Below are positions 1-48,989 of a stretch of DNA of 49,997 nucleotides, piece by piece. This DNA comes from a virus (taxonomy: Duplodnaviria > Heunggongvirae > Uroviricota > Caudoviricetes). Position numbers and translations under genes: made by a program. Every line of letters starts with the position of its first letter. The stretch's first letter is position 1. The notes under the pieces were generated by a model that saw only the letters and a list, made by a program, of their open reading frames with translations, searched no databases and was not told the DNA's origin. Location of the stretch: IMG/VR virus record IMGVR_UViG_2737471863_000004, positions 1 through 49,997 of that record; one strand, written 5' to 3'.

Positions 1-228
1 ATGAGCTTATTGCCTCGGGAAAACGCACCCCAAAAAAGATATAGACTTCTGAGAATATCAGAAGTGATTAATTTGACTGGCTTACCCAAGTCAACAATTT
101 ATCTAAAGATAAAGAATGATGAATTTCCGAACCAAGTTTCTATCGGTTCTCGTTCTGTTGCATGGGTGGAGCATGAAGTTAATGAATGGATAGAGAAGAA
201 TATTCTCAATAGAAAATTAAACTCCTAA
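1..228 (+). CDS. alpA: AlpA/Vis-family prophage regulatory protein (HTH, excisionase-like)
   Basis: 75 aa; motif RLLRISEVINLTGLPKSTIYLKIKNDEFP...SVAWVEHEVNEWI is typical of AlpA/P4 Vis. Recognised from memory of the family. Confidence 0.85.
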   Translation: MSLLPRENAPQKRYRLLRISEVINLTGLPKSTIYLKIKNDEFPNQVSIGSRSVAWVEHEVNEWIEKNILNRKLNS

Positions 229-245
229 ATTGAGGTGGCAAATAT

Positions 246-1106
246 ATGGTTGACAATGTTTTTAAGAAGAAATTGGCATCAATTAAGAACGAACATGTGT
301 CGGTGTTAGATAGTTACAAAGTAAGATCATTTAAAGAGACTCATAGCGACACGGCCTGTATTGTGCGTATTATTGAAATATATTCACTGAATAAGCTGCG
401 AGCTAAAGGTGAAAAGCTGTATTCACTTACGGGGTTAACAGTACCTGATACGGAAACTGTGGCGAATGAGATCAACCTGCTCCTGAGCCGTTATGCCCAG
501 TTGTGTCGTCAGGAAGAGGAAGAGTTATCTTTCCGGCAGCGTGAAGTGACAAATGCGGAAGTTGCATGGAAAAGCACATTCTCAAAAAACGGCGTCAGTA
601 GCATTGCTGAAGCCAAAACGAATAAAATGGGGCATGCTGAACGAGCGGATGCTGAACGGTATTACCATCTGGCTGTTTCCCGGTTGAATGAACAACATAG
701 TCGATTGAGCACGATCAAGCTTTTGCCGGGAGTACTGGCCGATGAAGGAAACTACATTGGGAAGGGAATCGATAAGCGTTTACTGAATATATTTCCTCAA
801 TCCGGCCAGATCCCTGCTGATTTTATTTCTGTATTTAATGACAGTGACGTTGTCCGTGATATTAAATTTATTACTGATGCACTCAAGTCTTTATCTGATT
901 CCGTGAGTGAAATTATTAGTCGTTGTAGCGTTCCAACTGATCGTTATGTATTAAATAACGGTGGAATGGCAAGAGCTATGGCTTACAGGGAGTACTATCG
1001 AGCAGATAATTATGTATTACGTTCAGTCGTAAGTGACCGGGATTATGTTGAGCATGTAATGAAATACAATCTGGTTACTGAGTACAAAAATAAAATCTTT
1101 TCTTAA
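246..1106 (+). CDS. Hypothetical protein of the satellite left operon; possible capsid-assembly partner of the downstream gene (positional inference only)
   Basis: 286-aa ORF with an ATG start 18 bp after alpA, co-oriented, normal GC; no motif recognised. Confidence 0.55.
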   Translation: MVDNVFKKKLASIKNEHVSVLDSYKVRSFKETHSDTACIVRIIEIYSLNKLRAKGEKLYSLTGLTVPDTETVANEINLLLSRYAQLCRQEEEELSFRQREVTNAEVAWKSTFSKNGVSSIAEAKTNKMGHAERADAERYYHLAVSRLNEQHSRLSTIKLLPGVLADEGNYIGKGIDKRLLNIFPQSGQIPADFISVFNDSDVVRDIKFITDALKSLSDSVSEIISRCSVPTDRYVLNNGGMARAMAYREYYRADNYVLRSVVSDRDYVEHVMKYNLVTEYKNKIFS

Positions 1107-1128
1107 ATACTTAAAAAGGTGAAAAACT

Positions 1129-2133
1129 ATGTATGCCTTCAAAACTGAAAGGCCGGACGCAGCACGTCGTTATCATAATAAATTCGTCACTGGCACTAAC
1201 TATCAGGAAGAATCAAACAGACGCTTTGCATTAAGCGAACCTACTGAAAATATACTGCGTACCTCAATTCTGGAATCCGGGTGGCTTATTAAAAATATTA
1301 CCCTACGTGATGTTAACGCCGTGTCAGGTAATGCCGTCAATATTGGTGCCAGTGAACTGTATACCGGACGTGTGGATGGTGGCCGTTTCCACAAAAAAAT
1401 GGCAATCAATGGTACGGAGTTCTTTCTGACAGAGACGGATACCTGCGCCCGGATCAGCTATTCCGATATGTCTCATATTTACCATACCGGCGTGCCGGAT
1501 GAGTTTGAGAAAACGGTTGAGAGCTTTTTTGCCCAGGCATATGCGCTGGACATGCTGCGGGTCGGTTTCAATGGTGTGTCGATTGCAAATACTACAAACC
1601 CGGAAATCAATAAAAAAGGCGAGGATGTCAATATTGGCTGGCATGCACTGGCGAAAGCCTACGGGAACGGAAAGCAAATCATCTCTGAGCCTGTCACTCT
1701 GGGAGAGACTGGCACCTGGAAAAATATTGATGCTCTGGCCAACCATCTGATTACAGAGCTTATTGCTGAGCAGTTTCGTGAAGATCCTCGTCTGGTTGTA
1801 CTGGTTGGGGCAGAGCTGGCAGCACATCAACGCCTGAAGTTATTTAATGCCGCAGACCGCCCGTCTGATGTGAATGCGGCACAGATGGCTACAAGTTCTG
1901 TTGCTGGCCGCTTTGCGTTTATTCCCCCGTTTATGCCGGGTAAGCGTCTGGCAGTAACGACGCTGGATAATCTGCATATTTACACTCAGGCGATAACACG
2001 CTGGTTTCGTGCTGAGTTTGATGATGAAAGCAGTGAATACGTGCATTCCTACCTGCGCAATGAAGGTTATGCACTCGGTGAACCTGAACTGTACGCGGCT
2101 GTCGATGAGAGCGCCCTGACGTTTGCGGATTGA
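1129..2133 (+). CDS. Probable P2 GpN-family major capsid protein homologue
   Basis: 334 aa; blocks GFNGV, NIGW, EDPRLVVLVGAEL and TTLDNLHIY align with my recollection of P2 GpN (GFNGV, VGW, EDPDLVVIVG, ENLSIY). Recalled, not searched. Confidence 0.5.
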   Translation: MYAFKTERPDAARRYHNKFVTGTNYQEESNRRFALSEPTENILRTSILESGWLIKNITLRDVNAVSGNAVNIGASELYTGRVDGGRFHKKMAINGTEFFLTETDTCARISYSDMSHIYHTGVPDEFEKTVESFFAQAYALDMLRVGFNGVSIANTTNPEINKKGEDVNIGWHALAKAYGNGKQIISEPVTLGETGTWKNIDALANHLITELIAEQFREDPRLVVLVGAELAAHQRLKLFNAADRPSDVNAAQMATSSVAGRFAFIPPFMPGKRLAVTTLDNLHIYTQAITRWFRAEFDDESSEYVHSYLRNEGYALGEPELYAAVDESALTFAD

Positions 2134-2146
2134 CTTAGCGACAGAA

Positions 2147-2175
2147 AGACCCGCTCAGAGGCGGGTCTCGTTTAC
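2147..2175 (+). terminator. Possible intrinsic terminator after the capsid-like gene
   Basis: GC hairpin AGACCCGC-loop-GCGGGTCT followed by a weak T stretch (CGTTTAC). Confidence 0.35.
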
Positions 2176-2324
2176 AGCATCAGGAAAAATGAAGAACTAT
2201 TTTTAAGCAGAGGCTTAAGCATGCCAGCGTTAATTAATCCAGGCAATGATCAGTTTTCGGTTATAAATTTCTTGCCTCACCAGGAATGCGCGGGATATAG
2301 TTTAAAGGTTGCCGCAAAATCGGC

Positions 2325-2600
2325 AGCCGGGCGTAGGAACCCGTGTTATCTGAAGGCGATACTACACGCGCCAGGCGTGTTTTTTTGTGTCGCAGCTTTG
2401 ACTCACCTAAAATTTATGGTGTGGTGGCTGATTGTATTTTTTTATTTTTTACGCCACATCATCAGAATTATGGTAGTCCAGGCGGGGCAGCTTTCGGGCT
2501 GGCCGGTATCCTTCAGAGCCGGTATTCCTACCCCCGTCTGGGCTACCACCCATGAGCGTAGGAACTCCGGTGGTAGCGTTACCCGCTATCTGAAGGAGGT
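2325..2600 (+). promoter_or_regulatory. P4-type immunity region: two direct repeats (seqA/seqC-like) flanking a complementary segment (seqB/CI-RNA-like)
   Basis: GCGTAGGAAC...TATCTGAAGG occurs at about 2331..2356 and 2557..2596. Between them, about 2510..2530 (CCTTCAGA...TTCCTAC) is the reverse complement of both halves. A hairpin plus T7 run at about 2369..2387 follows the first repeat. Confidence 0.45.
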
Positions 2601-2607
2601 TGCCATT

Positions 2608-2811
2608 ATGGCTACAGTCCCTGCTTTATCTCACCCTGAATTTACCTTTGTCTTTCTGGCTGTCCGCCGTACAGACCGTGATGCCCGTCCACGCCCTGTG
2701 CGTGTAATCGCAGAATGCGAGCATGCTGCACGCCTTAAACTTGCCACTGAATTTATCCTGAGCTTTGCTGCCCGTATCCCTGTGAAAAGAGCCGGGGAGG
2801 TGGTTGCATGA
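2608..2811 (+). CDS. Small hypothetical protein, 67 aa
   Basis: ATG at 2608 preceded by strong SD AAGGAGG; the SD lies inside the second immunity repeat. The start is internal to a longer track ORF that I reject. Confidence 0.4.
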   Translation: MATVPALSHPEFTFVFLAVRRTDRDARPRPVRVIAECEHAARLKLATEFILSFAARIPVKRAGEVVA

Positions 2812-3044
2812 AATCCATGAATTTTAAGCAAGGCTGCATATTGAGTGAACAGGGGGAGAGTCGTCTGTTACGGGCGGCACTGGCCAGTGAGTTTCTTGCA
2901 GAGGTCTTGTCCGTGCCCACAGTGAATGGAGCGAGAACTGTTTCAGCGGAAGGCGCTGCGGCTTTAGTGGCCTGTATTGCCGAACAACTGGATGGCGTTG
3001 TTAAGGAAACCAGCACAATTAAGGGAGTGATGCGCGATGAATAA
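2808..3044 (+). CDS. Hypothetical protein, 78 aa, upstream of the primase (position analogous to P4 epsilon)
   Basis: ORF with overlapping stop/start coupling to neighbours in the same operon. Confidence 0.45.
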   Translation: MKSMNFKQGCILSEQGESRLLRAALASEFLAEVLSVPTVNGARTVSAEGAAALVACIAEQLDGVVKETSTIKGVMRDE

Positions 3045-3447
3045 TAATCAAAATTTAAAGGCGCATGCTTTACGAACAGCAGTCTTACGCTACTACATTG
3101 CTGATGCATTCATTTCCTTAATGGTGCGTGTTCATAATGAACCTGTTTATATTGAAGATGGCGAACGAATAGAACTCTCCCACGAAAAAGTGGTGAGTAA
3201 TATTATTTACCATATTGAAATGCCGTGGGTGAATGAGTTTGGGGCTGATGCTGGTTGCATACTGGCCGCAGAGAAACTGGAAAAAATGCTTAAACCAGGC
3301 TTTATGTCAGAAAATATTCGCCTGTCAGTTTTTGGTGTCACAGAGATGCGTGAGGTTTACCGGGATATTATTTTCGGAGCACCTGATGGCGAACTACCCG
3401 AAGGTTTTGAATTTGTGAAGCCGGAAGGTCAGGAGGTGCTGCTGTGA
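3037..3447 (+). CDS. Hypothetical protein, 136 aa
   Basis: ORF whose stop overlaps the primase start (operon coupling). Confidence 0.5.
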   Translation: MNNNQNLKAHALRTAVLRYYIADAFISLMVRVHNEPVYIEDGERIELSHEKVVSNIIYHIEMPWVNEFGADAGCILAAEKLEKMLKPGFMSENIRLSVFGVTEMREVYRDIIFGAPDGELPEGFEFVKPEGQEVLL

Positions 3448-6131
3448 AAACACCGTCTGTATCCACGATTTCCGGAGCTGCAATTGGGCGCTGGCCTTAT
3501 ATCCTGTCAGCATTAGGTATTAAAGTACCGTCCGCAGGACATCATGGGGCTTGCCCTGCCTGTGGTGGAAAAGATCGTTTTCGACTGGACGATAAAGCGG
3601 GGCGAGGGACGTGGTTTTGTAATCAGTGCGGTCATGGCGATGGTCTTGATCTGGTTCGTCTGGTGACAGGAAGAAAGATAAAAGAAGTCGCCGGGATGGT
3701 ATCTGAGGCGCTTGCATTACCAGAAATACAGGAGAAGCCCGCATTGCCAGCCAGGAAAAAGGCCGCAGGAAAAGAAGCGGGCGCGGAGCGATATACCAGA
3801 CTCAGACAGCAGTCCTGCAATGGTGAGCCGGTCTATCTGACAAATAAGGGCTTACACGGGTATTCACTTCCCTTGCTGTCACAGCCTTTGAATCTGGCCG
3901 GAATAACATTTTCCACCGGTTCATTACTGCTGCCTTTGACGGATATTTCCGGGAATATTACTGGTGGCCAGCTTATCAATCCTGACGGGGATAAAAGTCT
4001 GCTGCCCGGTAGCCAGCTGTCTGGCGCATTCATTGCCCTGACCGATATACCCGCTGAAACACCTGAACAGGTGATTATCACTGAGGGTTTTGCCACGGCG
4101 CTTACCGTCAGTCTGCTGACTGAAGGATGGATCGTGGCGGCTGTCGCTGCCACCAATTTACTGAAGGTGACGGAGCAGATCCGAAAACGCTGGCCGGAAA
4201 CTCGGATCATTCTGGCCGGAGATAATGATCTGGCTGACGGCAAAGAAAACACCGGGCGTATTCAGGCAGAGAAAGCCGCCAAAGCGGTGGATGGCTGGGT
4301 AACGCTCCCTCCGGTACGCCATAAGGCTGACTGGGATGATTATCGGCAGGAAGTGGGGAAAGAACGGGCGAGAGATGCCTTTCGTGAAGAAATGACGCTG
4401 CATGGCAAAGGGCAGACCCGTTTACCAGAAGGGTTCCGGCTGACAAAAGAATATTTGTGGTACGACAAGCTGGTTAATAAGTCTGATGGTGATACAGAGA
4501 TACGTAATATCAAAATTTGCAGTCCGTTGCGGGTGACGGCAATCACCAGTGATGCTGATGGAAGTAATTACGGGCGTTTGCTGGAATGGGAAGATACCAA
4601 CGGAAACAGCCGTAAATGGGCAATGCCGATGGAGATGCTGGGCGGTAGCGGGGAAGAACTGCGCCGCGTTCTGCTGGTTAACGGGCTTTCTTACATCAAC
4701 ATTAATGGCATGGCCAGAGCATTCCTGATGGAATATATCTCGCTGTGTAAACCGGACAGAAAAGTAACCTGTGTGAATAAAACTGGCTGGCACGGCGGGG
4801 TTTACGTTCTCCAGGATGAAGTGATAGGGCGCGAAGCCCAGTCAGTCATCTTACAAACATCGAGTGTGCAGGGGCGTGATTTTCGTGTCAGCGGCACATC
4901 AGAGGGCTGGCGTGAAAATATAGGCCGTTATTGCATAAAGAATGCCCGTCTTGCCTTTGCGGTGAGTCTGGCATTTGCTGCCCCCCTTCTGAAACTGGTT
5001 GGTATCGGCGGTGGAGGTTATCACCTCAAAGGGGAATCCACAGACGGTAAAACCACGACGATGAAAGTGGCTGCATCAGTATGTGGTGGAACAGATTTCT
5101 GGCATACGTGGCGGGCGACGGGGAATGCCTTAGAAGGAACGGCGAGCCGCCGCAATGATGCCACGCTGATGCTGGATGAAATCCGGGAGGTTGACGGCAG
5201 GGAGGCGGGGAATATCGCTTATATGCTGGCTAACGGGCAGGGCAAAGCCAGAGCCAGAACAGATGGTTCGGTAAGGGAAACCAACCGCTGGAATCTGTTG
5301 TTTCTGTCTACCGGGGAACTGTCACTGGTAGAGCATGCGGCAAGCGCCGGGGAACGTACGTATGCCGGGGTTGAGGTCAGAATGATCCAGATCCCAAGCG
5401 ATTCGGGCAAGTATGGCGTGTTTGAAGAACTTCATGGCTTCAGTAGCGGGAAAACCCTGGCTGAGCATCTTGAGCAGCACGTAGCGCATTATCATGGTGC
5501 ACCATTCCGCGACTGGCTGTATTGCCTGACCGCTGATCTGCCGGAACTGACCAGTCAGGCGAAAGCCTTATTGAAAGAGTATACCCGAAGGCTGACGCCG
5601 GAAAATGCCGGGAATCAGGTTGGCCGGGCTGTTACCCGTTTTGCTCTGGTTGCGATGGCCGGGGAGCTGGCCACAAAAGCGGGCATCACAGGATGGCCGG
5701 AGGGAGAGGCCTTTCGTGCCGCTCAAAGCTGTCTGGCTGCATGGATGGCTGACCGGGGCCATACAGCTAATCAGGAAGATAAAGCGGCACTTGAACAGGT
5801 TCGGGACTTCATGACGCGTAATCAGTTCAGTCGGTTTGCTGACTGGAATGACGACAGGAACCGGCCTGTTTCAATGATGGGATTCAGAAAAGTCGATAAA
5901 GGAGACAACGTGACAGAGCCGGTTGTGACGTTCTACGTTCTCCCGTCAGGCTGGAAGGAGATCTGTAAGGGATTTGACTCGCGTAAGGTGGCCAGGTTGT
6001 GTGTGGACGCGGGCTGGCTGAAACCCGGTGAAGATGGCCGGACGCAAAACAGCATTCGCCTGCCAGAAATAGGGCTTAAACGTGTGTACCAGTTCAATAC
6101 ACAGGTACTGGGAAGCGCTGAACCTGAGTGA
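3444..6131 (+). CDS. P4 alpha-type primase-helicase
   Basis: 895 aa; N-terminal Cys/His zinc-ribbon (CPACGG...CNQCGH) and Walker A GESTDGKTT. Family recognised from memory. Confidence 0.85.
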   Translation: MKTPSVSTISGAAIGRWPYILSALGIKVPSAGHHGACPACGGKDRFRLDDKAGRGTWFCNQCGHGDGLDLVRLVTGRKIKEVAGMVSEALALPEIQEKPALPARKKAAGKEAGAERYTRLRQQSCNGEPVYLTNKGLHGYSLPLLSQPLNLAGITFSTGSLLLPLTDISGNITGGQLINPDGDKSLLPGSQLSGAFIALTDIPAETPEQVIITEGFATALTVSLLTEGWIVAAVAATNLLKVTEQIRKRWPETRIILAGDNDLADGKENTGRIQAEKAAKAVDGWVTLPPVRHKADWDDYRQEVGKERARDAFREEMTLHGKGQTRLPEGFRLTKEYLWYDKLVNKSDGDTEIRNIKICSPLRVTAITSDADGSNYGRLLEWEDTNGNSRKWAMPMEMLGGSGEELRRVLLVNGLSYININGMARAFLMEYISLCKPDRKVTCVNKTGWHGGVYVLQDEVIGREAQSVILQTSSVQGRDFRVSGTSEGWRENIGRYCIKNARLAFAVSLAFAAPLLKLVGIGGGGYHLKGESTDGKTTTMKVAASVCGGTDFWHTWRATGNALEGTASRRNDATLMLDEIREVDGREAGNIAYMLANGQGKARARTDGSVRETNRWNLLFLSTGELSLVEHAASAGERTYAGVEVRMIQIPSDSGKYGVFEELHGFSSGKTLAEHLEQHVAHYHGAPFRDWLYCLTADLPELTSQAKALLKEYTRRLTPENAGNQVGRAVTRFALVAMAGELATKAGITGWPEGEAFRAAQSCLAAWMADRGHTANQEDKAALEQVRDFMTRNQFSRFADWNDDRNRPVSMMGFRKVDKGDNVTEPVVTFYVLPSGWKEICKGFDSRKVARLCVDAGWLKPGEDGRTQNSIRLPEIGLKRVYQFNTQVLGSAEPE

Positions 6132-6157
6132 TTATCGCGTGAGTCTTATTTTTATGA

Positions 6158-6350
6158 GGTAACACTGGTAACAGAGGTAACACCCGTTACTGATGCGGTT
6201 CTTCAGTGTTACCAGTCAAAAATACTGACTGGTAACAGAGGTAACAAAAAATGGTGTGTTACCACGCGTTACCTCTTGATTTTGCTAACTGGTAACAGAT
6301 TAAATCCTTTTAAATCAATAGCGTTACACGTGTTACCAGTGTTACACGTT
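6158..6350. repeat. Iteron array (putative ori/crr-like primase binding sites)
   Basis: At least nine copies of GGTAACA / TGTTACC in both orientations within about 200 bp just after the primase gene; resembles P4 type I iterons (TGTTCACC). Confidence 0.55.
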
Positions 6351-6413
6351 CAGAACAAGAGGTAGGGATCCAAATCCCTTCTTCTGGCGGGCAACAGTAT
6401 AGGGCACAGAACG

Positions 6414-6686
6414 ATGAAGATGATGAGAATGTACTGCCCCACATGTCAGGCAGTAGCACGGATAGGTAAAACAAACAGGAAACACCCACAACTGTACGAT
6501 GTGTACTGCTATTGCTCTAATGTGGAGTGCGGTCACTCGTTTGTGATGAATGTTGCTTTCTCCCATTCCGTTAGTCCAAGCGCGCTGAACGGGCAGGGAA
6601 GGGTTAAAGAGCTGATTGATGCAATTCCACCCGAGGAACGGGAAAAGGCTTTAAAGTTGCTGCTGGCTGCGCAAAAGAATGGGTAA
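6414..6686 (+). CDS. Ogr/Delta-family zinc-finger late-gene activator
   Basis: Motif MYCPTCQ...CYCSNVECGH matches the CxxC...CxxxxC Ogr/Delta pattern; the true start may be one of the internal Met codons. Confidence 0.75.
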   Translation: MKMMRMYCPTCQAVARIGKTNRKHPQLYDVYCYCSNVECGHSFVMNVAFSHSVSPSALNGQGRVKELIDAIPPEEREKALKLLLAAQKNG

Positions 6687-7366
6687 AGTATGCGTCGGGA
6701 ATGGCCGATCTGTTCCCGGAACCTGAACACAGGATTTCAGTTTATACGGTCATAAAATTATTATTTTTCAACTGGTTATCTTCTTCATGTTTCACAAACC
6801 TTCATAAAATCACACACCTAAAATTAATTATCCATTTAATATCATAGAGTTGCGTATTCAGGCCATAGATTCGACGGACAGTAAAACTGAAAAAAAATGA
6901 ATTTCTTTTCATTCTTTTCAGTTCCTGTATCGCAGTACATCTCGAGGACTGGCACGGACTGGCGGTATCGTTTGTAAAAAATCCAGGCTGAAAATTTTTA
7001 GTGATATGAAAACCGCAGGCGGGTGCGGTGTAGTGCCGTTTTGGTCTGTCGAGCGTATATTTTCCCTTTTTCACGATTGCTGCATATCAAAACGAATGTG
7101 CAGATATCAGGCCGTGTCAAACCGTGAATCGTGGAGCCTAAATGCCCAAACTACGTTTGTAGACCTAGCTAGGGGAAGGTTTCCACATATACTGCTACCT
7201 ATCTTCCAGTCGCTGGTGAGGATCAAGGTAAGCTAACTGGTGAACAAGAAAAGTACTTTCGTATCTTGCGTACTCGTTTTTTTTGATTAGTATGTACAGG
7301 TAGTAACTGGATGGTGAGAATTCGTCATAACTTATCAAATTGCATGATGTTTATAGAGTATGAGTA

Positions 7367-8248
7367 ATGAGTCATAATAAAAAGGAATATGCTAAATTTT
7401 TCCGTCGCCCCATTTTTTCATCCTTAGCAAAAGGTAAGGATATTTCGGATTTATTTGGGAGTTTTGATTCTTACTGCTATGAAACACTGTTTTCAAACAA
7501 TGATAATAATGAACATGAGATTTCACTAAGGGATTTATTTACATCATTATATGATTTTTTGCGTCTGAATTATAGAAATGAATATGTTTATAAGACAGCA
7601 CTTGTCAATAAAATAATATTCGGTAAGCACAGCCCAAAAACAAGTTCGTCGTCCATAGAGTTACCAATTAAAAACTCTATAGTGGATGTTGCGGTGTTTA
7701 ATGGTACGTCTACAGCTTACGAGATTAAGACAGAGTATGATTCACCAAAAAGGTTGATTACTCAAGCCCCTGATTATTTGGATGTTTTTGATAAAGTGTA
7801 TATAGTTACACATCCAGAGTATGCAAGTAAATATTGTGCTTTAAATCTCCCCAGAGTGGGAGTTATGGTTTTGAATAAAAAAGATCAATTGAGTGTCATT
7901 AAGGAGGCAGATTCAAATATTGATTATATTAAAAGTGACAGCTTGTTTTCAGTTCTTAGAAAGGAAGAGTTCTTAGCTATAATAGAAGATTACACTTCAA
8001 CTAAAATAAATATGCCTAATGGATTGGTTTATGAATATTGTAAAGAGATATTCATGCAGATGCCATTAAACATAGCAAATAAATACTTTATCTCTGCTAT
8101 GAAAAAAAGATGTAACGACAAAGTTTTTTTGGATTATATTTATTCTCTTCCAGCATGTTTACGTGTTTTAGGTTATGCAACACCATTATCAAGAAAGCAA
8201 AAAGAATTCATCATGAATTTGATGGATGTAAAAATTAAAATTTGTTGA
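7367..8248 (+). CDS. Cargo protein A, 293 aa, with a putative PD-(D/E)xK nuclease-like core
   Basis: Very AT-rich codon usage versus flanks. Motif IVDVAVFNGTSTAYEIKTE (D107, E119, K121) fits the restriction-endonuclease-like pattern. No signal peptide or TM segment seen. Confidence 0.7.
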   Translation: MSHNKKEYAKFFRRPIFSSLAKGKDISDLFGSFDSYCYETLFSNNDNNEHEISLRDLFTSLYDFLRLNYRNEYVYKTALVNKIIFGKHSPKTSSSSIELPIKNSIVDVAVFNGTSTAYEIKTEYDSPKRLITQAPDYLDVFDKVYIVTHPEYASKYCALNLPRVGVMVLNKKDQLSVIKEADSNIDYIKSDSLFSVLRKEEFLAIIEDYTSTKINMPNGLVYEYCKEIFMQMPLNIANKYFISAMKKRCNDKVFLDYIYSLPACLRVLGYATPLSRKQKEFIMNLMDVKIKIC

Positions 8249-8269
8249 TATCCTCAGGAGTTGTAAGTT

Positions 8270-9220
8270 ATGTATAGCCCATATTTGTATGCGAGAAGTA
8301 CAGAGTTATTATGCCTTAGGGACCTCGTTGCGAAGGGAGTTAGCCTAAATGGTCTGCTACCAATTTTAGAACCAATTAACGTCAATACGAGAAATTTATT
8401 AACATGTTTAAATGTTTGGAATTCTGACATAATTGTTATCCTTAATCCTTATCAGGAAGATTTTTCTTCACACAATAACGTCTTAACTTTAAATCAAAAT
8501 TTATCAAGTGTATTAACAAATAAAAACAATATCATCTCTGGATATCTTATTCAGCCCAATACAACGATTAATGATATTAATAATTGGTTGAATGCTAACT
8601 TAAATAGACGAGTTGCACTTCTATATGATAATCCATCATTATCCAACTCTGATATTCAGTTGTTGGCGACAAATCAATTGATTAGTTATCATGTTGTTTT
8701 AAATAATAAAATGCTTCCTAATCAGTGCGCTCTTCTTCCTTTGTCGAAGTTAATTATTATTAGCGATAACTTTAGAAAGTTAGCAAAAAATGCTGATTAT
8801 AATGGGCCGGAACTTTTCACGCACGCACATCAATTCGTGGGACAAAATTACTTAGGATTTGGCGATTATACAATTACTGGCCAGGTACTAGATCTTGGAG
8901 GTGGTCAACCTTCTGCTGTTGCCGCACATTTGGTGTTCAAGAATTTACAAGCGAATACAGTTTGGATTCGTCATTTTGTATCAAGCAACACGCAACGAGG
9001 AAGTTCAAATGTTACTGCAAAATTTTTAGATGTTTCAGATCAAATTACAAATCTTGTTCCCCAACATCCAACCCAGTTTGGCAGCAACATTGGTCTTAAC
9101 TATTATTATTACAATAGTCAACCAACTGTAAGGCATTTCCCTGGGTTGCCAAAAAACAAACAGTATCAAATTACTCACCATATTTGTTTCATGCTGGATT
9201 TAATAGCAGGTCGTATTTAA
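8270..9220 (+). CDS. Cargo protein B, 316 aa, function unknown
   Basis: AGGAG RBS 11 nt upstream; 21 bp after cargo A, so likely an operon. AT-rich; no motif recognised. Its 3' end overlaps the integrase 3' end by 21 bp, convergently. Confidence 0.7.
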   Translation: MYSPYLYARSTELLCLRDLVAKGVSLNGLLPILEPINVNTRNLLTCLNVWNSDIIVILNPYQEDFSSHNNVLTLNQNLSSVLTNKNNIISGYLIQPNTTINDINNWLNANLNRRVALLYDNPSLSNSDIQLLATNQLISYHVVLNNKMLPNQCALLPLSKLIIISDNFRKLAKNADYNGPELFTHAHQFVGQNYLGFGDYTITGQVLDLGGGQPSAVAAHLVFKNLQANTVWIRHFVSSNTQRGSSNVTAKFLDVSDQITNLVPQHPTQFGSNIGLNYYYYNSQPTVRHFPGLPKNKQYQITHHICFMLDLIAGRI

Positions 9221-10423
9221 TAAGCTAGCGTACCATTCCATCATTACTTGTCGATCTTTAATATATTGCGCATGATTGTAAGTACCTCGAATAGAGTTCT
9301 TATCAACATGCGCAAGCTGCATTTCAATCCAGGCACTTTCAAACCCATGCTCATGCAAGATGGTGCTCATGGTATGCCTGAAACCGTGACCCGTTAACCG
9401 ACCGTGATAACCCAGTAGTTTTATCACTTTGTTGATGCTGGCTTCGCTCATTGGTTTCCTGACGTCATTTCGGCCAGGGAAAACGAGGCTGTAATTCCCT
9501 GTTATTTCTTGCAGCTTTTTCAGGATATTGATCGCCTGAGTTGATAACGGAACCAGATGGGGGCGGCGTTTCTTCATCCGTTCTTTGGGGATCTCCCATA
9601 AGGCATTATCTAAATCAAACTCAGCCCATTCCGCTGCACGTAGTTCAATTGTTCGCACGCCTGTTAGCATCAACAGCTGCGTGGCGTATTTGGTAACTAA
9701 ACTGCCCTGATAGTTATCCAGAGCATTAACGAACTCGGGCAACTCGCTTTCAGTCAGGAACGGGAAGTGTTGGGTTTTAGGTTTGTTGAGTGCGATAGCT
9801 AAATCGGGTGCAAAATTATACTTTGCTCTACCAGTGGCAACAGCATAACGAAGCACTTCACCACAGCGGCGGCGGATCTTACTGGTTTGCTCTAGCGCAC
9901 CTCTTTTCTCTATTTTTTGCAGGACGGTTAGCAGTTCTAATGGTTCAATCTGCTCAATTGGGCGCTGGCCGATAAAAGGAAAAATATCCTTTTCCATACA
10001 ATTGAGAACCTCTTTTGCATAACCCTCTGACCAGGTGGCTTTTTTCGATGAGTGCCATTCTCTGGCCACAGACTCAAAGCTGTTCTCATGCGCGAACTGC
10101 AAAGCAATCTTATCTGCTTTTCTGGCTTCACTTGGGTTTATCCCTTTGGCTAACATCGAACGCGCTTCATCACGTTTGGTACGTGCCTGTGCCAACGACA
10201 CATCGCCATATACGCCAAAGGAAATCATCTTAGGCTTACCTGCAAAGCGATAGCGAAAACGCCAGCCTTTACTGCCCGCTGTGTCGATCAGGAGTGATAG
10301 CCCCATACCATCGTTAAGCGTATAGGGTTTGTCCTTCGGTTTTGCTCTTTTTATTTGGATGTCAGATAGCAGCATGTGTATAGAAAAAAGATCGAACTCA
10401 GTTATACACAATGTTATACGCAA
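9200..10423 (-). CDS. Tyrosine integrase, IntS/P4 family, of the satellite
   Basis: N-terminal DKPYTLNDGMGLSL arm-binding motif and C-terminal HGFRH...RGTYNHAQY catalytic motifs; clear similarity across the length to IntS at 47596..48753. The likely true start is the internal Met at about 10375. Confidence 0.9.
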   Translation of the reverse strand: MRITLCITEFDLFSIHMLLSDIQIKRAKPKDKPYTLNDGMGLSLLIDTAGSKGWRFRYRFAGKPKMISFGVYGDVSLAQARTKRDEARSMLAKGINPSEARKADKIALQFAHENSFESVAREWHSSKKATWSEGYAKEVLNCMEKDIFPFIGQRPIEQIEPLELLTVLQKIEKRGALEQTSKIRRRCGEVLRYAVATGRAKYNFAPDLAIALNKPKTQHFPFLTESELPEFVNALDNYQGSLVTKYATQLLMLTGVRTIELRAAEWAEFDLDNALWEIPKERMKKRRPHLVPLSTQAINILKKLQEITGNYSLVFPGRNDVRKPMSEASINKVIKLLGYHGRLTGHGFRHTMSTILHEHGFESAWIEMQLAHVDKNSIRGTYNHAQYIKDRQVMMEWYASLLNTTCY

Positions 10424-10534
10424 AGATGTATAGATTCCATTAGAAATAATGGTACTTTGCTGGACGAGTATAAGGAGATGATATCAGTTAAAACAGTGAG
10501 TTATGGAATTAATTGGACTTAGTGAGAAGTGTTC

Positions 10535-10550
10535 ATGGTGTCCCCTGCAG
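10535..10550. repeat. att core copy (ATGGTGTCCCCTGCAG) at the junction between the two elements
   Basis: Exact 16-bp identity to 48914..48929, the 3' end of argW plus 1 nt. It lies between torI and the satellite integrase. Confidence 0.7.
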
Positions 10551-10623: not shown

Positions 10624-10824
10624 TTACCCATTGGCGCGGCTTAAGAGCTTATTTTTGAATTCACAATGGTCACGATATAACCATCTTGCTCGTCCGTGGA
10701 TAACTTTGGCTTTAGGCAGGTCGCCGGACTTAATCCGGTCATAGATGAAGGTCTTACCGAAGCCAGTATCAGCCATGATGAATTTCAAATCAACCAGTGA
10801 ATCAGGTTGTAGTTCGTGTTGCAT
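10624..10824 (-). CDS. torI: TorI-type excisionase (recombination directionality factor)
   Basis: 66 aa, MQHELQPDSLVDLKFIMADTGFGKTFIYDRIKSGDLPKAKVIHGRARW..., matching the E. coli KplE1 TorI as I recall it; located next to the att core. Confidence 0.8.
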   Translation of the reverse strand: MQHELQPDSLVDLKFIMADTGFGKTFIYDRIKSGDLPKAKVIHGRARWLYRDHCEFKNKLLSRANG

Positions 10825-29249: not shown

Positions 29250-29693
29250 ATGGCGCGCCCAACAAAGTATCAAGAGGCGTATGCCGAACAGGCACGCAAA
29301 CTGTGCTTGCTGGGCTATACAGACGCCGAACTCGCTGACTTCTTTGAAGTTAGCGAGGCAACAATCAACAATTGGAAATTGGAATATCCGGAGTTTTTAG
29401 AGTCCATAAAAAAGGGTAAGGCCGTCGCTGATGCAGAAGTTAGTGATCGTCTTTATCAACGCGCTATGGGCTTCGTGGCTCCAGACATCGATATTCGTGT
29501 TATTGAAAACAGAATTGTCGAAACTCCGCTTAAGAAGTATTACCCGCCTGATACAACTGCCGCCATCTTCTGGCTCAAGAACAGACAGAAAGATAAATGG
29601 CGAGAGAAGCAGGACGTCAACCATACATCTGATGACGGCTCCATGACTCCAAAAGCTCCAGTGTATAACATTGTAAAAAGCGAGACGCAATGA
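29250..29693 (+). CDS. Terminase small subunit
   Basis: 147 aa immediately upstream of the large terminase, with an overlapping stop/start. Confidence 0.7.
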   Translation: MARPTKYQEAYAEQARKLCLLGYTDAELADFFEVSEATINNWKLEYPEFLESIKKGKAVADAEVSDRLYQRAMGFVAPDIDIRVIENRIVETPLKKYYPPDTTAAIFWLKNRQKDKWREKQDVNHTSDDGSMTPKAPVYNIVKSETQ

Positions 29694-31168
29694 CAGAGCA
29701 ATGCAGCATTCCTGAAGCGTTTGAGGAATACCTGCAGCCAGCCAGATTCAAGGTAGCTTATGGCGGGCGAGGTTCCGCCAAGACGCGAACGTTCATAACA
29801 ATCCTCCTCAATAACGTCATCTATCACGGATGGAAGCTTATCTGTTTTCGTGAGTACATGAAGTCCATCAAGGAATCATGCTATGCGGAAATTGTTGAAG
29901 AGATTAACCGCCGAAACCTCCACTCACTGGTGACTATCAATAAGACAGAGATATTTGCCAATAGCGGCGGACGTATCAGTTTCGACTTCCTGCGCCTTAA
30001 CGTGGAAAATATCAAAGGTTACGCAAACTTCGATGCCGCCCTTGTAGAGGAAGCAGAAAACGTATCAAAGGACTCATGGGAAACGCTTATCCCAACGGTA
30101 CGTAAAGAGTTCTACAGCGCTGAGTATGGTCGAGTGGTTGAGTCGGAAATATGGGTTGCATACAACCCGAAGAACAGACTCAGCGATACACATCAGCGCT
30201 TTGTTACGAATCGCATATACCCCGACTATGACGAAAACGGTAATCGCTACTGCATCGTCAAGCAGATCAACTACACAGCTAATCCATGGTTCCCGGAAAC
30301 TCTCCGCAGGGATATGGAGATTATGAAGAAGGCTAATCACGAGCTTTATCGGCATGTGTATCTTGGTGAACCGGTGGGGGCATCAGAAATGGCTATTATC
30401 AAGTTTGCATGGTTAGAGGCTGCAACAGACGCCCACATTAAGCTCGGATGGAAAGCTAAAGGTGCAGTGATTGCAGCGCATGACCCGTCAGACACCGGCC
30501 CAGATGCCAAAGGATATGCAGTGCGACATGGATCAGTTGTTAAGCGCGTATGTGAAGGGCTGCTCATGGATATAAACGAGGGTGCTGATTGGGCATCTTC
30601 ATTGGCGGTAATCGATGATGTTGATCATTTCCTGTTTGATGGAGATGGACTTGGAGCAGGGCTTCGTCGACAGATAACAGACTATTTCAGTGGAAAGAAA
30701 GTCACCGTAACAATGTTTAAAGGTAGTGAATCGCCATTCGACGAAGATGCTCCATATCAGGCTGGGGCATGGACTGATGAAGTTGTGCAGGGTGATAACG
30801 TCCGCACTATTGGAGATGTATTCCGAAACAAGCGAGCGCAGTTCTATTACACGCTGGCTGACAGGCTTTATCGAACATACCGGGCGGTAGAGCATGGTGA
30901 ATACGCCGACCCTGATGAAATGCTTAGCTTTGACAAAGAGGCTATTGGAGAGAATATCCTCAACAAGCTATTCGCAGAGCTAACGCAGATCCAACGCAAA
31001 TTCAACGGCAACGGAAAGCTTGAGCTGATGACCAAAGTCGAAATGAAGCAGAAGCTCGGTATTCCATCTCCTAACCTGGCTGATGCGCTGATGATGTGTA
31101 TGCATTGCCCGGAGTCGGCTGCGAAACCCGACTATTCCAGTTACTCAATTCCTTGTGGTGTAGGTTGA
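29690..31168 (+). CDS. Terminase large subunit
   Basis: 492 aa; Walker A-like YGGRGSAKT near the N-terminus and a C-terminal nuclease-like region. Confidence 0.9.
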   Translation: MTEQCSIPEAFEEYLQPARFKVAYGGRGSAKTRTFITILLNNVIYHGWKLICFREYMKSIKESCYAEIVEEINRRNLHSLVTINKTEIFANSGGRISFDFLRLNVENIKGYANFDAALVEEAENVSKDSWETLIPTVRKEFYSAEYGRVVESEIWVAYNPKNRLSDTHQRFVTNRIYPDYDENGNRYCIVKQINYTANPWFPETLRRDMEIMKKANHELYRHVYLGEPVGASEMAIIKFAWLEAATDAHIKLGWKAKGAVIAAHDPSDTGPDAKGYAVRHGSVVKRVCEGLLMDINEGADWASSLAVIDDVDHFLFDGDGLGAGLRRQITDYFSGKKVTVTMFKGSESPFDEDAPYQAGAWTDEVVQGDNVRTIGDVFRNKRAQFYYTLADRLYRTYRAVEHGEYADPDEMLSFDKEAIGENILNKLFAELTQIQRKFNGNGKLELMTKVEMKQKLGIPSPNLADALMMCMHCPESAAKPDYSSYSIPCGVG

Positions 31169-31169
31169 T

Positions 31170-33368
31170 ATGGCAGAAAAAAAGATGACTGACTGGCATC
31201 GCAAGGTGCTGTGCAACTTTGATAATGCCTGGTCAGCAACGCAGGATATGCGTGAGCAGATTATTGAGGCTCAACGTTTCGTCCGGGTGTCCGGCGCACA
31301 GTGGGAAGGCAGTACAAACGCTGGTTACTCATTTGATGAGGGCAGGTTTGAGCATTACCCGCGCTTTGAACTGAATAAGATTGCCCGTGAATGTGATCGC
31401 ATCATTGGCGAGTATCGACAGAATCGCATCAGCGTTAAATTCAGGCCGAAGGACGATAAGGCATCGGAAGCGTTAGCCGAAAAGATGAACGGCAAATTCC
31501 GCGCTGATTATCAGGAAACATCCGGTGGCGAAGCGTGTGATAACGCATTTGATGATGCTGTAACGGGCGGATTTGGTTGTTTCCGCATGTGTGCCGATTA
31601 CGAAGATGAAATGGATCCGAGTAACGAGCAGCGACGCATCAGCCTTCTTCCTGTTTACGACCCAGCGACATGCGTCTTCTTCGATCAGGACAGCAAGCAA
31701 TATGACCGCTCTGATGCTATGTGGGCTATGGAAATGTTCTCCATGACGCCTAAAGCGTTCGAGGATGAATACCCTGATTCCATCGCGGCAAGCCTTTCTC
31801 GTGATGACACTGGCACTCAATATGACTGGTCAACGCCAGATGCCATCTATGTTGGTCGCTACTACGAAGTTCGCATAGAGAAGGTGAAGCTCACGGCATG
31901 GCGCAACCCTGTTAGCGGAGAAACGGCAATCTATGATGAAGAGCAAATCAAAGATATTGTCGACGAGCTGACCGATGGTGCATTCGAACTGATTGGCGAG
32001 CGAACGGTGAAGAAGCGCCGCGTTTATTGCGGTCTTCTGTCTGGCGCTGAATGGCTGGAAGAACCGAAGCGTATTCCGGGCGAACATATTCCTCTCATTC
32101 CGGTATATGGGCGTCGCTCATTTGTTGATAATCAGGAGCGAATCGAAGGCCACGCAGCAAAAGCGATGGATGCACAGCGTCTTGAGAACCTGATGGTTTC
32201 CATGATTGCAGATAACGCCACTCAGGCTGGCGGTGATGGCATTCCTGTAGTTGATGTTGACATGATTCCTGGTCCTCTCGCCACTCATTGGGCGGAGCGC
32301 AACAAAAAGCGCCCGGCGTTCCTGCCGATGGTCAGTCTGAAAAACAAAAACGGAGATATTACTGCGCAGGCTCAGGTCAGCAGTTATACGCCTCCGACAC
32401 AAATGCCTCCAGCTCTTGCCGGGCTATTGCAGTACACCGGAACGGCTATTCAGCAAATTACAGGTGCGTCGCAGCTTGAGAACATGCCGAGCAACGTCGC
32501 CACCGATACCGTTGATAGCATTTTTAACCGGATGGACACGCAGTCCTATATCTACATGGACAACATGGCTAAATCCATGCGCCGTGCTGGCGTCGTGTGG
32601 CTTTCTATGGCTCGTGAAGTCTATGGCAGCGATACGCCAATGCGCATCGTTAATGAGGATGGCAGCGATGACGTGGCGCTGATGACTGGTGAAGTGGTTG
32701 ACCGTCAGACAGGGCAGGTTATCGCGCTTAACGACCTTTCGCAGGGTAACTATGAAGTGACTGTCGATGTCGGTCAGTCGTTCGCTACTCGCCGTGATGC
32801 AACGGTTAAGTCGTTACTTTCCATGCTGGCACTTATCCCACCAGGAACGCCGAAGCACGACCTTGTATCGTCGATGATTCTCGACAATATGGACGGCGAA
32901 GGGATGGACGACCTTAAAGAATACAACCGCAATCAGTTGCTTCTGTCTGGAGTTATCAAGCCGAGAACACCAGAAGAACAGCAGATGGTTGAGCAGGCGA
33001 AACAACAACAGGCCAGTCAGCCAGATCCGGCTATGGTTGCAGCGCAAGGTCAGCTTCTTGCTGGTCAGGCTGAATTGCAGAAAGCGCAGAACGAACAGGC
33101 AGCCATTCAGGTTAAAGCATTCCAGGCACAGACTGATGCTCAGGTTGCAGCGGCAAATGTTGTGAAAATACTCGCATCTGCCGATAGTCAGCAGAAATCT
33201 GATATCCGCGAGGCTCTGAAACTGCTCGGACAGTTCCAGCAACAGCAAGGAGATAATGCCCGTGCTGATGCAGAGCTTGTCCTGAAAAGTCAGGCACAGG
33301 GCCATGCGCAGCGCATGGACATCAGCAGCATCCTGCAAAAATCAACTCAGCAACAACCACAGCAGTAA
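31170..33368 (+). CDS. Portal protein (P22 gp1-like)
   Basis: 732 aa; blocks RRRVY, GEHIPLIPVYG, PRTPEEQQ, QGQLLAGQAELQKAQN, ARADAELVLK and HAQRMDI match P22 portal as recalled. Confidence 0.9.
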   Translation: MAEKKMTDWHRKVLCNFDNAWSATQDMREQIIEAQRFVRVSGAQWEGSTNAGYSFDEGRFEHYPRFELNKIARECDRIIGEYRQNRISVKFRPKDDKASEALAEKMNGKFRADYQETSGGEACDNAFDDAVTGGFGCFRMCADYEDEMDPSNEQRRISLLPVYDPATCVFFDQDSKQYDRSDAMWAMEMFSMTPKAFEDEYPDSIAASLSRDDTGTQYDWSTPDAIYVGRYYEVRIEKVKLTAWRNPVSGETAIYDEEQIKDIVDELTDGAFELIGERTVKKRRVYCGLLSGAEWLEEPKRIPGEHIPLIPVYGRRSFVDNQERIEGHAAKAMDAQRLENLMVSMIADNATQAGGDGIPVVDVDMIPGPLATHWAERNKKRPAFLPMVSLKNKNGDITAQAQVSSYTPPTQMPPALAGLLQYTGTAIQQITGASQLENMPSNVATDTVDSIFNRMDTQSYIYMDNMAKSMRRAGVVWLSMAREVYGSDTPMRIVNEDGSDDVALMTGEVVDRQTGQVIALNDLSQGNYEVTVDVGQSFATRRDATVKSLLSMLALIPPGTPKHDLVSSMILDNMDGEGMDDLKEYNRNQLLLSGVIKPRTPEEQQMVEQAKQQQASQPDPAMVAAQGQLLAGQAELQKAQNEQAAIQVKAFQAQTDAQVAAANVVKILASADSQQKSDIREALKLLGQFQQQQGDNARADAELVLKSQAQGHAQRMDISSILQKSTQQQPQQ

Positions 33369-34370: not shown

Positions 34371-35624
34371 ATGGCTAACCAATTAGCAAAAGACCTTGAA
34401 ATCATGTTCGAAAACTACGTTGAAGGCTTTGAGGCCGCCTGCGTAGTTTCCCGTAACGCTAAAAAATTCCGTCCCGGTGATACAGCAATGCAGCGAGCAG
34501 GTGATGTTCTGTATCGTCCGCAGCATTACCACATGAACATTGAGGAAGGCCTCGATCTCAGCGGAAAAACGCCAACAGCACTGGTTCAGCGCCTTGTTCC
34601 TTCAGTGTTCAAGGAGCCGAAAAACATTCTGTACACTCTGGATGCGCGTGAAATGCGTGACCCGGAACATAAAACTGAAGCTGGTCGCGCCGCAGGTATG
34701 CGCCTTGCTGCACAGATTGACTCTGACCTGATTTCCATGGTCACACAGCGTGCTACTAACGTGATCACAATGGCTGACTCAACCACTGGTTCACAGGGCC
34801 GTGATTTGTGGAACTGTGCGGCAGGTATTGATGCCACCATGACGGCGATTGGTGTACCACAGGGTATCAACCGCCGCTCTTTCTGGAACCCCTTCAACTA
34901 TAAAGACCTTGCTGGCGAGCTTGGTCACCGTGCCTATGCTCAGGGCGCAACCCTGACAGCATACGAAAAAGCGCAGATCCCTCCGGTTGCTTCCTTTGAT
35001 AGCTACAAGACCGATATTTCTGGTCGTGTTCCGAAGGGTACAGCAACTTCCATTACGCTGGCAGCAGCACCTGCGCACAAGGTTGAAGCGAAAGATGCTA
35101 ACGATATGCCAGTGGATAACCGACAGGGGACCATTACGGTATCTGCTGAAGGTTTGCAGGTTGGCGATGCGTTTACCATCGCAGGGGTGAATTCCGTACA
35201 CCAGATCACCAAAGATACCACCGGGCAGCCGCAGGTATTCCGCGTTCTGGCAGTTAGCGGAACGACAGTAACTATCTCCCCGAAAATTCTGCCGCCTGAC
35301 AACGCGGATGTCGCCAGCCGTCCATATGCAAACGTTGATGCTAATGCGGCAAGTAGCGCAGCAATTACCATTCTCAACAAAAATGCCGCACCGGCTAACC
35401 TGTTCTGGGCTGATGGTTCTGTTGAACTGATGTACGGCAAACTGGCGTTCCCGACTGGTCAGGGTCCACAGGTAATGACAGCAACCACCGAGCAGGGCGC
35501 TACGCTGATCATGTCTTACGCCTTCGACCATATCAAAGGCGTAACCACTGCGCGTTTCACCACTCTGTACGGTTGCTCTGTACTGGTTCCTGAATATACG
35601 GGCATCGTTATTGCCGGGCAGTAA
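34371..35624 (+). CDS. Major coat protein (P22 gp5-like)
   Basis: 417 aa, followed by a strong intrinsic terminator; P22-like gene order. Confidence 0.75.
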   Translation: MANQLAKDLEIMFENYVEGFEAACVVSRNAKKFRPGDTAMQRAGDVLYRPQHYHMNIEEGLDLSGKTPTALVQRLVPSVFKEPKNILYTLDAREMRDPEHKTEAGRAAGMRLAAQIDSDLISMVTQRATNVITMADSTTGSQGRDLWNCAAGIDATMTAIGVPQGINRRSFWNPFNYKDLAGELGHRAYAQGATLTAYEKAQIPPVASFDSYKTDISGRVPKGTATSITLAAAPAHKVEAKDANDMPVDNRQGTITVSAEGLQVGDAFTIAGVNSVHQITKDTTGQPQVFRVLAVSGTTVTISPKILPPDNADVASRPYANVDANAASSAAITILNKNAAPANLFWADGSVELMYGKLAFPTGQGPQVMTATTEQGATLIMSYAFDHIKGVTTARFTTLYGCSVLVPEYTGIVIAGQ

Positions 35625-48753: not shown

Positions 48754-48914
48754 GGGTAAAAATCCGGTGGGTAAAATTATTTTATCCACTTTTTACCCGT
48801 CATGGTGTGCGGCTGTCAACGATCTGACGCGAACCATGACGAACCGTGAATATACGGAAGGCTTGATATTCAGGGGATTTTGCGGACTGGTGCGGATGGG
48901 AGCGAACTGATAAA

Positions 48915-48989
48915 TGGTGTCCCCTGCAGGAATCGAACCTGCAATTAGCCCTTAGGAGGGGCTCGTTATATCCATTTAACTAAGAGGAC
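48915..48989 (-). tRNA. argW: tRNA-Arg (anticodon CCU), argW
   Basis: Reverse complement GTCCTCTTAGTTAAATGGATATAACGAGCCCCTCCTAAGGGCTAATTGCAGGTTCGATTCCTGCAGGGGACACCA folds as a cloverleaf with anticodon loop CUCCUAA and a CCA end; its 3' end carries the att core. Confidence 0.9.

Follow-up and report, generated by a model that had tools for sequence, protein, structure and literature searches.

The window analysed here is the whole 49,997-nucleotide stretch of the caudoviricete record IMGVR_UViG_2737471863_000004 in IMG/VR, and its positions 1-10,550 hold nearly all of a phage satellite of about 11.0 kb, as measured between its att repeats. Comparative analysis identifies this island as a satellite with a helper-type cos site, no Sid or Psu, and a conserved two-gene module maintained by selection: orf334, which encodes a paralogue of a phage major capsid protein (MCP), and orf286, which lies directly upstream and encodes an orphan protein. 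Satellite status follows from the exact helper-type cos core, the att repeats, the P4-type C4/isrK immunity region, further homologies to P4, and the cargo hotspot. We consider it somewhat probable, on comparative genomics, that the orf286-MCP module serves as the head-morphogenesis device of the satellite in place of Sid and Psu. Redirecting capsid size is central to how phage satellites work, and few solutions to it are understood, namely Sid, CpmAB, Ccm, TcaP and the full kit of the capsid-forming phage-inducible chromosomal islands (cf-PICIs). Because the island has neither sid nor psu, any capsid strategy that it follows must differ from that of Sid, and to this extent an earlier reading of the same DNA (the original prediction), which proposed a capsid strategy distinct from Sid, stands; the part of that proposal concerning assembly and size control is a suggestion from comparative genomics.

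Sequence and predicted structure confirm orf334 as a full-length homologue of the P2-family MCP with the HK97 fold. The protein matches Pfam family PF05125 at an E-value of 1.1e-66 (225.6 bits against a cut-off of 27) over profile positions 16-325 of 327, and PHROG 70 ("major head protein") at 2.6e-86. Among PDB sequences, HMMER matched it to the phiRSA1 capsid (7oz4, 2.5e-21) and to P2 gpN in the P4 procapsid (7jw1, 2.8e-16), and in these alignments the four gpN-like blocks singled out by the original prediction (GFNGV, NIGW, EDPRLVVLVG and DNLHIY) line up with blocks of gpN. The AlphaFold (AF2) model, computed from 41 family members (pLDDT 83.8, pTM 0.83), has gpN of 7jw1 as its top PDB match in Foldseek (E 8.8e-24, TM-score 0.71-0.77) and phiRSA1 7oz4 as its second, with other HK97-fold capsids and encapsulins far lower. 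Profile and structure searches of this gene thus both found the similarity that had been predicted, and the assignment to the P2 capsid family is borne out. Against the NCBI equivalog for phage gpN (TIGR01551) the score is 204.7 bits, under the cut-off of 219.65, so orf334 is a diverged member of the family and not a typical phage gpN. The two open reading frames (ORFs) of 286 and 334 codons lie exactly where they had been drawn (Table 1), each preceded by a good Shine-Dalgarno sequence. A GC-rich hairpin shortly past the capsid gene is possibly the end of an alpA-orf286-orf334 transcription unit; a terminator scan passed over it on account of its weak T-run.

The upstream gene belongs to a family of its own. 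Homologues of orf286 form 105 clusters at 90% identity, all named "hypothetical", of 281-291 aa and from Enterobacteriaceae, and a profile search of 1.84 billion representative proteins returned 53 relatives, mostly of 276-308 aa, including about fifteen short fragments and one outlier of 886 aa. No match was found in Pfam, NCBIfam or PDB sequences, and the sole PHROG match, to phrog_6880 ("translation elongation factor"), was weak (E 0.002) and was disregarded. The AlphaFold model (pLDDT 88, pTM 0.81) is all-alpha, with long helices at residues 35-62, 73-116, 126-157 and 200-227. Foldseek of this model against viral models gave no match at E<0.001, and profile searches of the PDB returned coiled-coil noise only. 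The proposal that orf286 is a GpO-like scaffold did not hold up. Comparison of the orf286 family with ESSI-2 GpO and with a GpO alignment by hhalign gave probabilities of 1.1% and 0.7%, and orf286 finds nothing against PF05929, while the genuine GpO of ESSI-2 matches that family at 7e-40. With no meaningful Pfam, NCBIfam or PHROG match and both family profiles at about 1%, an identity as GpO is ruled out. Comparisons of the family with P4 Sid and P4 Psu by hhalign likewise stayed below 1% probability. By sequence and by model, orf286 is an orphan helical family that is not recognisable as GpO, Sid or Psu. It is nonetheless a candidate scaffold or size-determining partner of the MCP, a role suggested by its position, by its helical character and by the protease-only GpO of its relatives.

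Related loci, found with orf286 or the MCP as query, have a common layout that runs from alpA through an orf286 orthologue and the MCP gene to the DUF927 primase, Ogr/Delta, cos, a variable hotspot and int. The orf286 orthologue lies directly upstream of the MCP gene in satellites of Escherichia coli, Citrobacter, Enterobacter, Franconibacter, Kosakonia, Phytobacter, Salmonella, Yersinia, Providencia and Rahnella; the Yersinia members are Yersinia ruckeri, and a second Enterobacter lineage also has the layout. Upstream ORFs of the distant members are genuine homologues of orf286, with hhalign probabilities of 99.3-100% at 26-31% identity. In Yersinia ruckeri (locus L017:11011-11532), Providencia (L021:11017-11550) and Rahnella (L028:10012-10533), the MCP gene is directly followed by a gene for a protease-only GpO, an N-terminal domain of 173-177 aa that keeps D19, H48 and S107 (P2 numbering) and from which the C-terminal scaffolding domain is absent. 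In P2 GpO the scaffolding domain comprises residues 195-284, and S107A is the published protease-dead mutant. No gene of this kind is found in the E. coli element. Since the GpO of the relatives is without its scaffolding domain, orf286 is left as the candidate scaffold, and protease-only GpO, MCP and orf286 together look like a head kit in which orf286 would give the missing scaffold or size function.

The history of the capsid gene is consistent with long residence in satellites. In a neighbour-joining tree of 117 MCPs, a phage clade (ESSI-2, ev015, vB_YenM_324 and one Brenneria protein) is sister to a clade of all the others. Every sampled context in the latter was a satellite (6/6), and the one context sampled in the phage clade, that of the Brenneria gene, was a complete P2-like prophage. 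One ancient acquisition of the capsid gene by the satellite lineage would account for this topology; the two-gene module is inherited within that lineage. Satellite MCPs are 48-51% identical over their full length to those of ESSI-2-type phages (49% for orf334); identity between the two clade consensus sequences is 0.51 overall, with a minimum of 0.10-0.40 in the N-arm (the first 60 residues). GpO cleaves this segment in gpN, and internal scaffolds are in contact with it in other phages, for which reasons we count this peak of divergence in favour of a head-morphogenesis role. Both genes of the module are maintained by selection, as judged from low pairwise ratios of nonsynonymous to synonymous substitution (dN/dS): 0.09-0.18 for the MCP, and for orf286 0.18 between the window and locus L006 and 0.72 in one very close pair (L012-L013). 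The primase gave 0.03-0.09. Of these three genes orf286 evolves fastest, its dN being about twice that of the MCP.

The cos site points to a probable helper. When the two ends of the ESSI-2 genome are joined, the resulting sequence aligns with window positions 6886-7063 over 148 bp (75% identity) and over a further 48 bp (90%). Each end of the ESSI-2 record bears GCGGGTGCGGTGTAG, as expected for cohesive ends written twice, and the identical core is present in the window. Of 13 related satellite loci that extend past ogr, 12 have an exact copy of this 17-mer, always just downstream of that gene; in the Rahnella locus L028 no copy was seen even with up to 3 mismatches allowed. At the same tolerance, the P2/P4 cos sequence GGCGAGGCGGGGAAAGCAC has no occurrence in the island. 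From the match in cos type, the island would be built for packaging by the terminase of ESSI-2-type peduoviruses, relatives of P2 that are its likely helpers. The helper-type genome is 29-31 kb, which gives a satellite-to-helper size ratio of about 0.36-0.38, like that of P4 to P2. ESSI-2-type phages infect E. coli and are reported in the literature as prophage in 1 of 10,943 genomes, and ev015-type O-N genes (scaffold plus capsid) occur in 30 of 5,426 complete E. coli genomes. In the same 5,426 genomes the orf286-MCP module occurs in 450 (421 at ≥99% identity), O25b:H4-ST131 strains included, and the first 10.6 kb of the window is present at ≥80% coverage in 421. The satellite is far commoner in E. 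coli than its presumed helper is as prophage.

Helper control may act through Ogr/Delta. A TGT-N12-ACA dyad upstream of ogr (Table 1) is a candidate activator site of the Ogr/Delta type, through which ogr would be helper-inducible or autoregulated; the count of such patterns overall is no higher than chance. A second dyad, a possible Ogr-type late-promoter element 56-73 bp before the alpA ATG (L001:8928-8945, in E. coli E62), is shared by close relatives only and is less well conserved than the one near ogr.

Known satellites provide several points of comparison, of which P4 is the nearest in backbone. The strict P4-like set consists of int, psu, delta, sid, alpA, epsilon and alpha (PMC10085698). 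Like P4, the island is about 11 kb long, is integrated in a tRNA gene by a P4-type integrase, and has Vis/AlpA, an Ogr/Delta activator, an immunity region of C4/CI antisense RNA that includes an icd-like ORF, a primase with a Toprim N-terminus and a cos site matching that of a peduovirus helper; as in P4, its defence hotspot occupies the interval from cos to int. The sce7726 gene in this hotspot is a homologue of P4 cII, which is itself annotated as sce7726 family. Unlike P4, the island has no sid, psu or epsilon, the helicase part of its primase is DUF927, its cos is of the ESSI-2 type, its genes run in one direction from alpA to ogr, and it has an MCP gene and orf286, neither of which is found in P4. 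No Sid, Psu, epsilon or GpO was detected in any of the six frames of the island; tblastn of P4 Sid and Psu gave nothing significant, and the only match of epsilon was 25 aa long, at E 0.018 on the opposite strand. With sid, psu and epsilon missing, the island family fails the strict P4-like definition by gene content. The original description as a P4-like satellite is therefore right about a phage satellite with a P4-related backbone and does not extend to the strict class, given the missing genes, the DUF927 helicase half and the ESSI-2 cos.

Capsid genes in satellites have precedents. In SaPIbov5 the MCP homologue Ccm redirects the capsid size of phi12; it is located in the pentamers of T=4 procapsids and is 23% identical to the helper capsid protein. 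Like Ccm, orf334 is a satellite-encoded HK97-fold paralogue of a helper-type MCP, on a predicted cos-packaged island without a Sid- or CpmB-type scaffold. Ccm differs in its Gram-positive host, in an unrelated capsid family and island backbone and in having no conserved orf286-like partner, and its role is demonstrated, whereas that of orf334 is a predicted one. Among Gram-negative phage-inducible chromosomal islands (PICIs), 21 of 29 reference elements have a capsid gene; EcCICFT073 and PmCI172 are Gram-negative PICIs with capsid genes. The present island resembles EcCICFT073 and PmCI172 in its unidirectional int-alpA-primase layout, with alpA to ogr all on one strand and int at the end, and has the gene content, orientation and size (11.0 kb) of a Gram-negative PICI; by these features the family would pass the generic int-alpA-primase definition. 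Gram-negative PICIs are cos-packaged by a temperate helper, as is predicted for this island from its cos site. The only tested E. coli PICI is EcCICFT073, in which the capsid gene is needed for neither transfer nor interference. Its genes c1499 and c1500 are members of the gpE and gpD families of lambda (Pfam Phage_cap_E and HDPD) without BLASTP similarity to orf334, and an identity of orf334 with this lambda gpE-family capsid gene is ruled out. The capsid genes of EcCICFT073 also lie at the other end of their island, unlike the module described here, and the present family differs again in its P4-type immunity, Ogr/Delta, P2-family MCP and orphan partner. The cf-PICIs encode capsid, protease, portal, connectors, TerS and TerL, and their small capsids are built from HK97-fold proteins of their own. 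Here there are only the MCP and orf286, with the protease in some relatives, and the family fails the cf-PICI definition on gene content because portal, connectors and terminase are missing. The closest capsid relatives are found in the ESSI-2-type peduoviruses (Seongnamvirus, Quadragintavirus and Tresduoquattuorvirus), which share the identical cos core and an Ogr homologue at 48-51% identity. These phages have a bona fide GpO (PF05929, with protease and scaffold domains) upstream of N, in addition to portal, terminases and tail genes; the satellite has orf286 where they have GpO.

If the module is the head-morphogenesis device of the satellite, its action can be envisaged as follows. After helper infection, the Ogr/Delta and AlpA circuits of the satellite would activate alpA, orf286 and orf334 as one unit. 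With orf286 to guide it, either as a scaffold or by determining size, the private MCP would then form a small shell, roughly T=4, fitted to 11 kb and not to the larger genome of the helper. The helper would give the portal, the terminase (acting on the shared cos), the head-completion proteins, the tail and the lysis functions; the maturation protease would come from the helper in the E. coli element and from the satellite itself in the Yersinia, Providencia and Rahnella relatives. We favour a shell made mainly of satellite MCP, with a chimeric shell as the close alternative. The broader proposal, which we put forward only tentatively, is that a widespread group of enterobacterial satellites, as yet undescribed, makes a small shell of its own from a private P2-family MCP, an orf286-family scaffold and sometimes a protease-only GpO, and takes from ESSI-2-type phages no more than portal, terminase, head completion and tail.

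Several observations weigh against a role in building the particle. Induction, packaging, small capsids and the presence of orf334 in particles are all predictions from the genes. No fold or sequence tie connects orf286 to any scaffold. The E. coli element has neither protease nor portal, so that a private shell would have to fit helper partners despite a sequence divergence of 51%. The alpA-proximal dyad is not kept in more distant relatives, which leaves late-promoter control of the module uncertain. Finally, the lambda gpE-family capsid gene of EcCICFT073 is dispensable for both transfer and interference, so packaging need not be what a satellite capsid gene is for.

Of the other explanations, co-assembly in the manner of Ccm survives best, although we judge it rather unlikely. 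The satellite MCP would here occupy particular positions, such as the pentamers, in a shell composed largely of helper gpN, whose curvature it would bias towards a small capsid, with orf286 as an accessory (chaperone, external brace or decoration). SaPIbov5 Ccm, with its place in the pentamers of T=4 procapsids, is an instance of such a mechanism, and co-assembly would suit both an E. coli element without its own protease or portal and an MCP whose core, inter-subunit surfaces included, is far more conserved than its N-arm. The relatives, however, hold a scaffold candidate, an MCP and a protease, which resembles a complete shell kit. At 49% identity to helper-type MCPs, as against 23% between Ccm and its helper capsid protein, orf334 is also much closer to its counterparts, is full length and bears no sign of specialisation for one position.

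The main alternative to a structural role is interference or defence, less probable still in our estimate, which owes its weight to the dispensable capsid gene of EcCICFT073. The MCP paralogue and orf286 would mainly poison or misdirect the capsid assembly of peduoviruses, to the benefit of host and island, and would not be needed for packaging of the island. Satellites commonly interfere with their helpers, and this island has a defence hotspot. The fast evolution of orf286 (dN about twice that of the MCP, and the high dN/dS of one close pair) is as expected of an arms race, and the 450 complete E. coli genomes with the module contrast with the rarity of ESSI-2-type prophages. A pure poison, however, needs neither a full-length MCP under strong purifying selection over its whole length nor, as in the relatives, a companion maturation protease with an intact triad, and the exact helper cos and 11-kb size indicate an element built for packaging. 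Deletion of c1499 or c1500 did not relieve the interference of EcCICFT073 with lambda. The capsid gene of that island is, moreover, of an unrelated type (lambda gpE family) and has a gpD homologue as its partner. It is highly improbable that the pair is an inert remnant of the O-N head operon of a decayed ESSI-2-like prophage, or the unrelated accessory module that the original prediction allowed for, for instance a compartment of encapsulin type with its cargo. The order of the pair, with the 286-aa gene ahead of the capsid gene, does mimic O-N of P2 and ESSI-2, and HK97-fold shells with adjacent cargo genes exist (encapsulins are among the distant Foldseek matches of orf334), but neither ORF is disrupted and dN/dS stays low across genera, the gene arrangement is compact, conserved and in every case like that of a satellite, orf286 is no relative of GpO, orf334 is nearest to true phage capsid proteins and not to encapsulins (E 1e-24 versus 1e-9), the MCP phylogeny places it among satellites, and cos and att sites are intact.

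The remaining features of the island are given in Table 1. From left to right the order is att, alpA, orf286, MCP, the icd-like ORF with isrK and C4, two small genes, primase, Ogr/Delta, cos, sce7726/sce7725, int and att. The alpA gene is the first of the alpA-orf286-orf334 cluster and its ATG is the start of the window, so the flank to the left was read in E. coli E62, to which the first 10.6 kb of the window is 100% identical. Relative to the layout of P4, the capsid module sits between Vis/AlpA and the immunity region. The N-terminal 320 aa of the primase are 38% identical to P4 alpha; its C-terminal DUF927 part does not align. Cargo in the hotspot of relatives includes Kiwa (KwaA/KwaB), a DndB-like pair and a HATPase_c_3 pair (L017:16383-18346, L018:16343-18242, L021:16322-17914 and L028:15684-17276).

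Table 1. Features of the satellite, with positions in the window
Feature	Position	Strand	Description
alpA/vis-type regulator-excisionase	1..228	+	Pfam Phage_AlpA 5e-20; 46% identical to P4 Vis/ORF88
orf286	246..1106	+	286 aa; satellite-specific all-alpha protein (predicted); always directly upstream of capsid gene
orf334	1129..2133	+	334 aa; full-length HK97-fold MCP paralogue, P2/ESSI-2 family
GC-rich hairpin GACCCGC-TCAGAG-GCGGGTC	2148..2167	+	Read from sequence; 15 nt past orf334 stop
P4-type immunity region, icd-like ORF	2221..2811	+	58% identity to P4 cI-region ORF; PGAP name "Icd-like"
a1b1 target	2295-2347		Inside immunity region
isrK	2308-2385		Inside immunity region; Rfam 69.5 bits
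C4 antisense RNA	2466-2553		Inside immunity region; Rfam C4 81.1 bits
Two small conserved genes	2808..3447	+	78 aa and 136 aa; PHROG 38507 and 5991 (unknown function); syntenic in relatives; P4 epsilon/orf151 position
Primase-helicase (Zn-ribbon, Toprim, DUF927)	3444..6131	+	Pfam
TGT-N12-ACA dyad	6340..6357	+	TGTTACACGTTCAGAACA; about 65 bp upstream of ogr ATG; conserved in L006, L007 and L009
Ogr/Delta-family late-gene activator	6414..6686	+	Pfam Ogr_Delta 5e-14
cos site, ESSI-2 type	6886..7063	+	Core AGGCGGGTGCGGTGTAG at 7017-7033
Cargo/defence hotspot: sce7726 and sce7725 family genes	7367..9220	+	NCBIfam; P4 hotspot position, between cos and int
Tyrosine integrase	9200..10423	-	40% identical to P4 Int
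att copy, right end of satellite	10535..10550		Repeat of tRNA-Arg CCU 3' end

The satellite stands in tandem with a P22-like prophage at argW. Copies of att, each the 3' end of tRNA-Arg(CCU), are found at 10535-10550, at 48915-48933 and about 460 bp to the left of the window start. The part of the satellite that precedes alpA contains a (CCCAG)x10 microsatellite (L001:8675-8724 in E62), located 276-325 bp before the first position of the window and placed after the left att copy but ahead of the promoter region of alpA; variation in its length could affect expression. In the window the prophage comprises a TorI-like excisionase (10624-10824), terminase (29690-31168), portal (31170-33368), coat (34371-35624), tailspike (45618-47516) and int (47596-48789), and is followed by tRNA-Arg(CCU) at 48915-48989 and then by a gene of the formate/nitrite transporter family. 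This prophage differs from the one at the same site in E62, whose annotation does not fit the window past 10.6 kb; from there on the window was annotated directly. Matches in IMG/VR are mostly prophage calls from isolate genomes, and several of its "viral genomes" of 42-51 kb (loci L033-L042) are the satellite fused to a neighbouring prophage, some of them starting at window position 1. Automated prophage calls evidently merge the satellite with the P22-like prophage and drop its left ~460 bp. No excised or packaged form was found: an 11.4-kb metagenome scaffold (L031) begins in a tRNA gene and has no terminal overlap, and is therefore an integrated copy.

Satellite-encoded capsid homologues in general are already established and are not categorically new. 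The original prediction went too far in presenting such a gene as a novelty, since Ccm, the capsid genes of most reference Gram-negative PICIs and the cf-PICIs precede it and RefSeq/PGAP already names orf334 "P2 family phage major capsid protein". What appears to be undescribed is the combination of a P4-related backbone for immunity, regulation and integration with an ESSI-2-type cos, a P2-family MCP and orf286 (sometimes with a protease-only GpO), without Sid or Psu. No published description of this satellite family was found in the searchable literature, a search that left out most subscription journals and whose silence is not proof. A P4-related backbone in which Sid and Psu are replaced is a natural experiment on how the triangulation number of an HK97-fold shell is set, and with ESSI-2-type phages as probable helpers it offers a directly testable helper-satellite pair. 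The family is common in E. coli and extends across Enterobacterales, its defence cargo is variable (sce7725/7726, Kiwa), and its mechanism of transfer affects the spread of defence systems. It also bears on the move of satellites from stealing capsomers to making them. If these satellites do build their own shells, they would be an evolutionary and mechanistic intermediate between P4, which sets an external Sid cage on helper capsomers, and the cf-PICIs, which carry a full head and packaging set.

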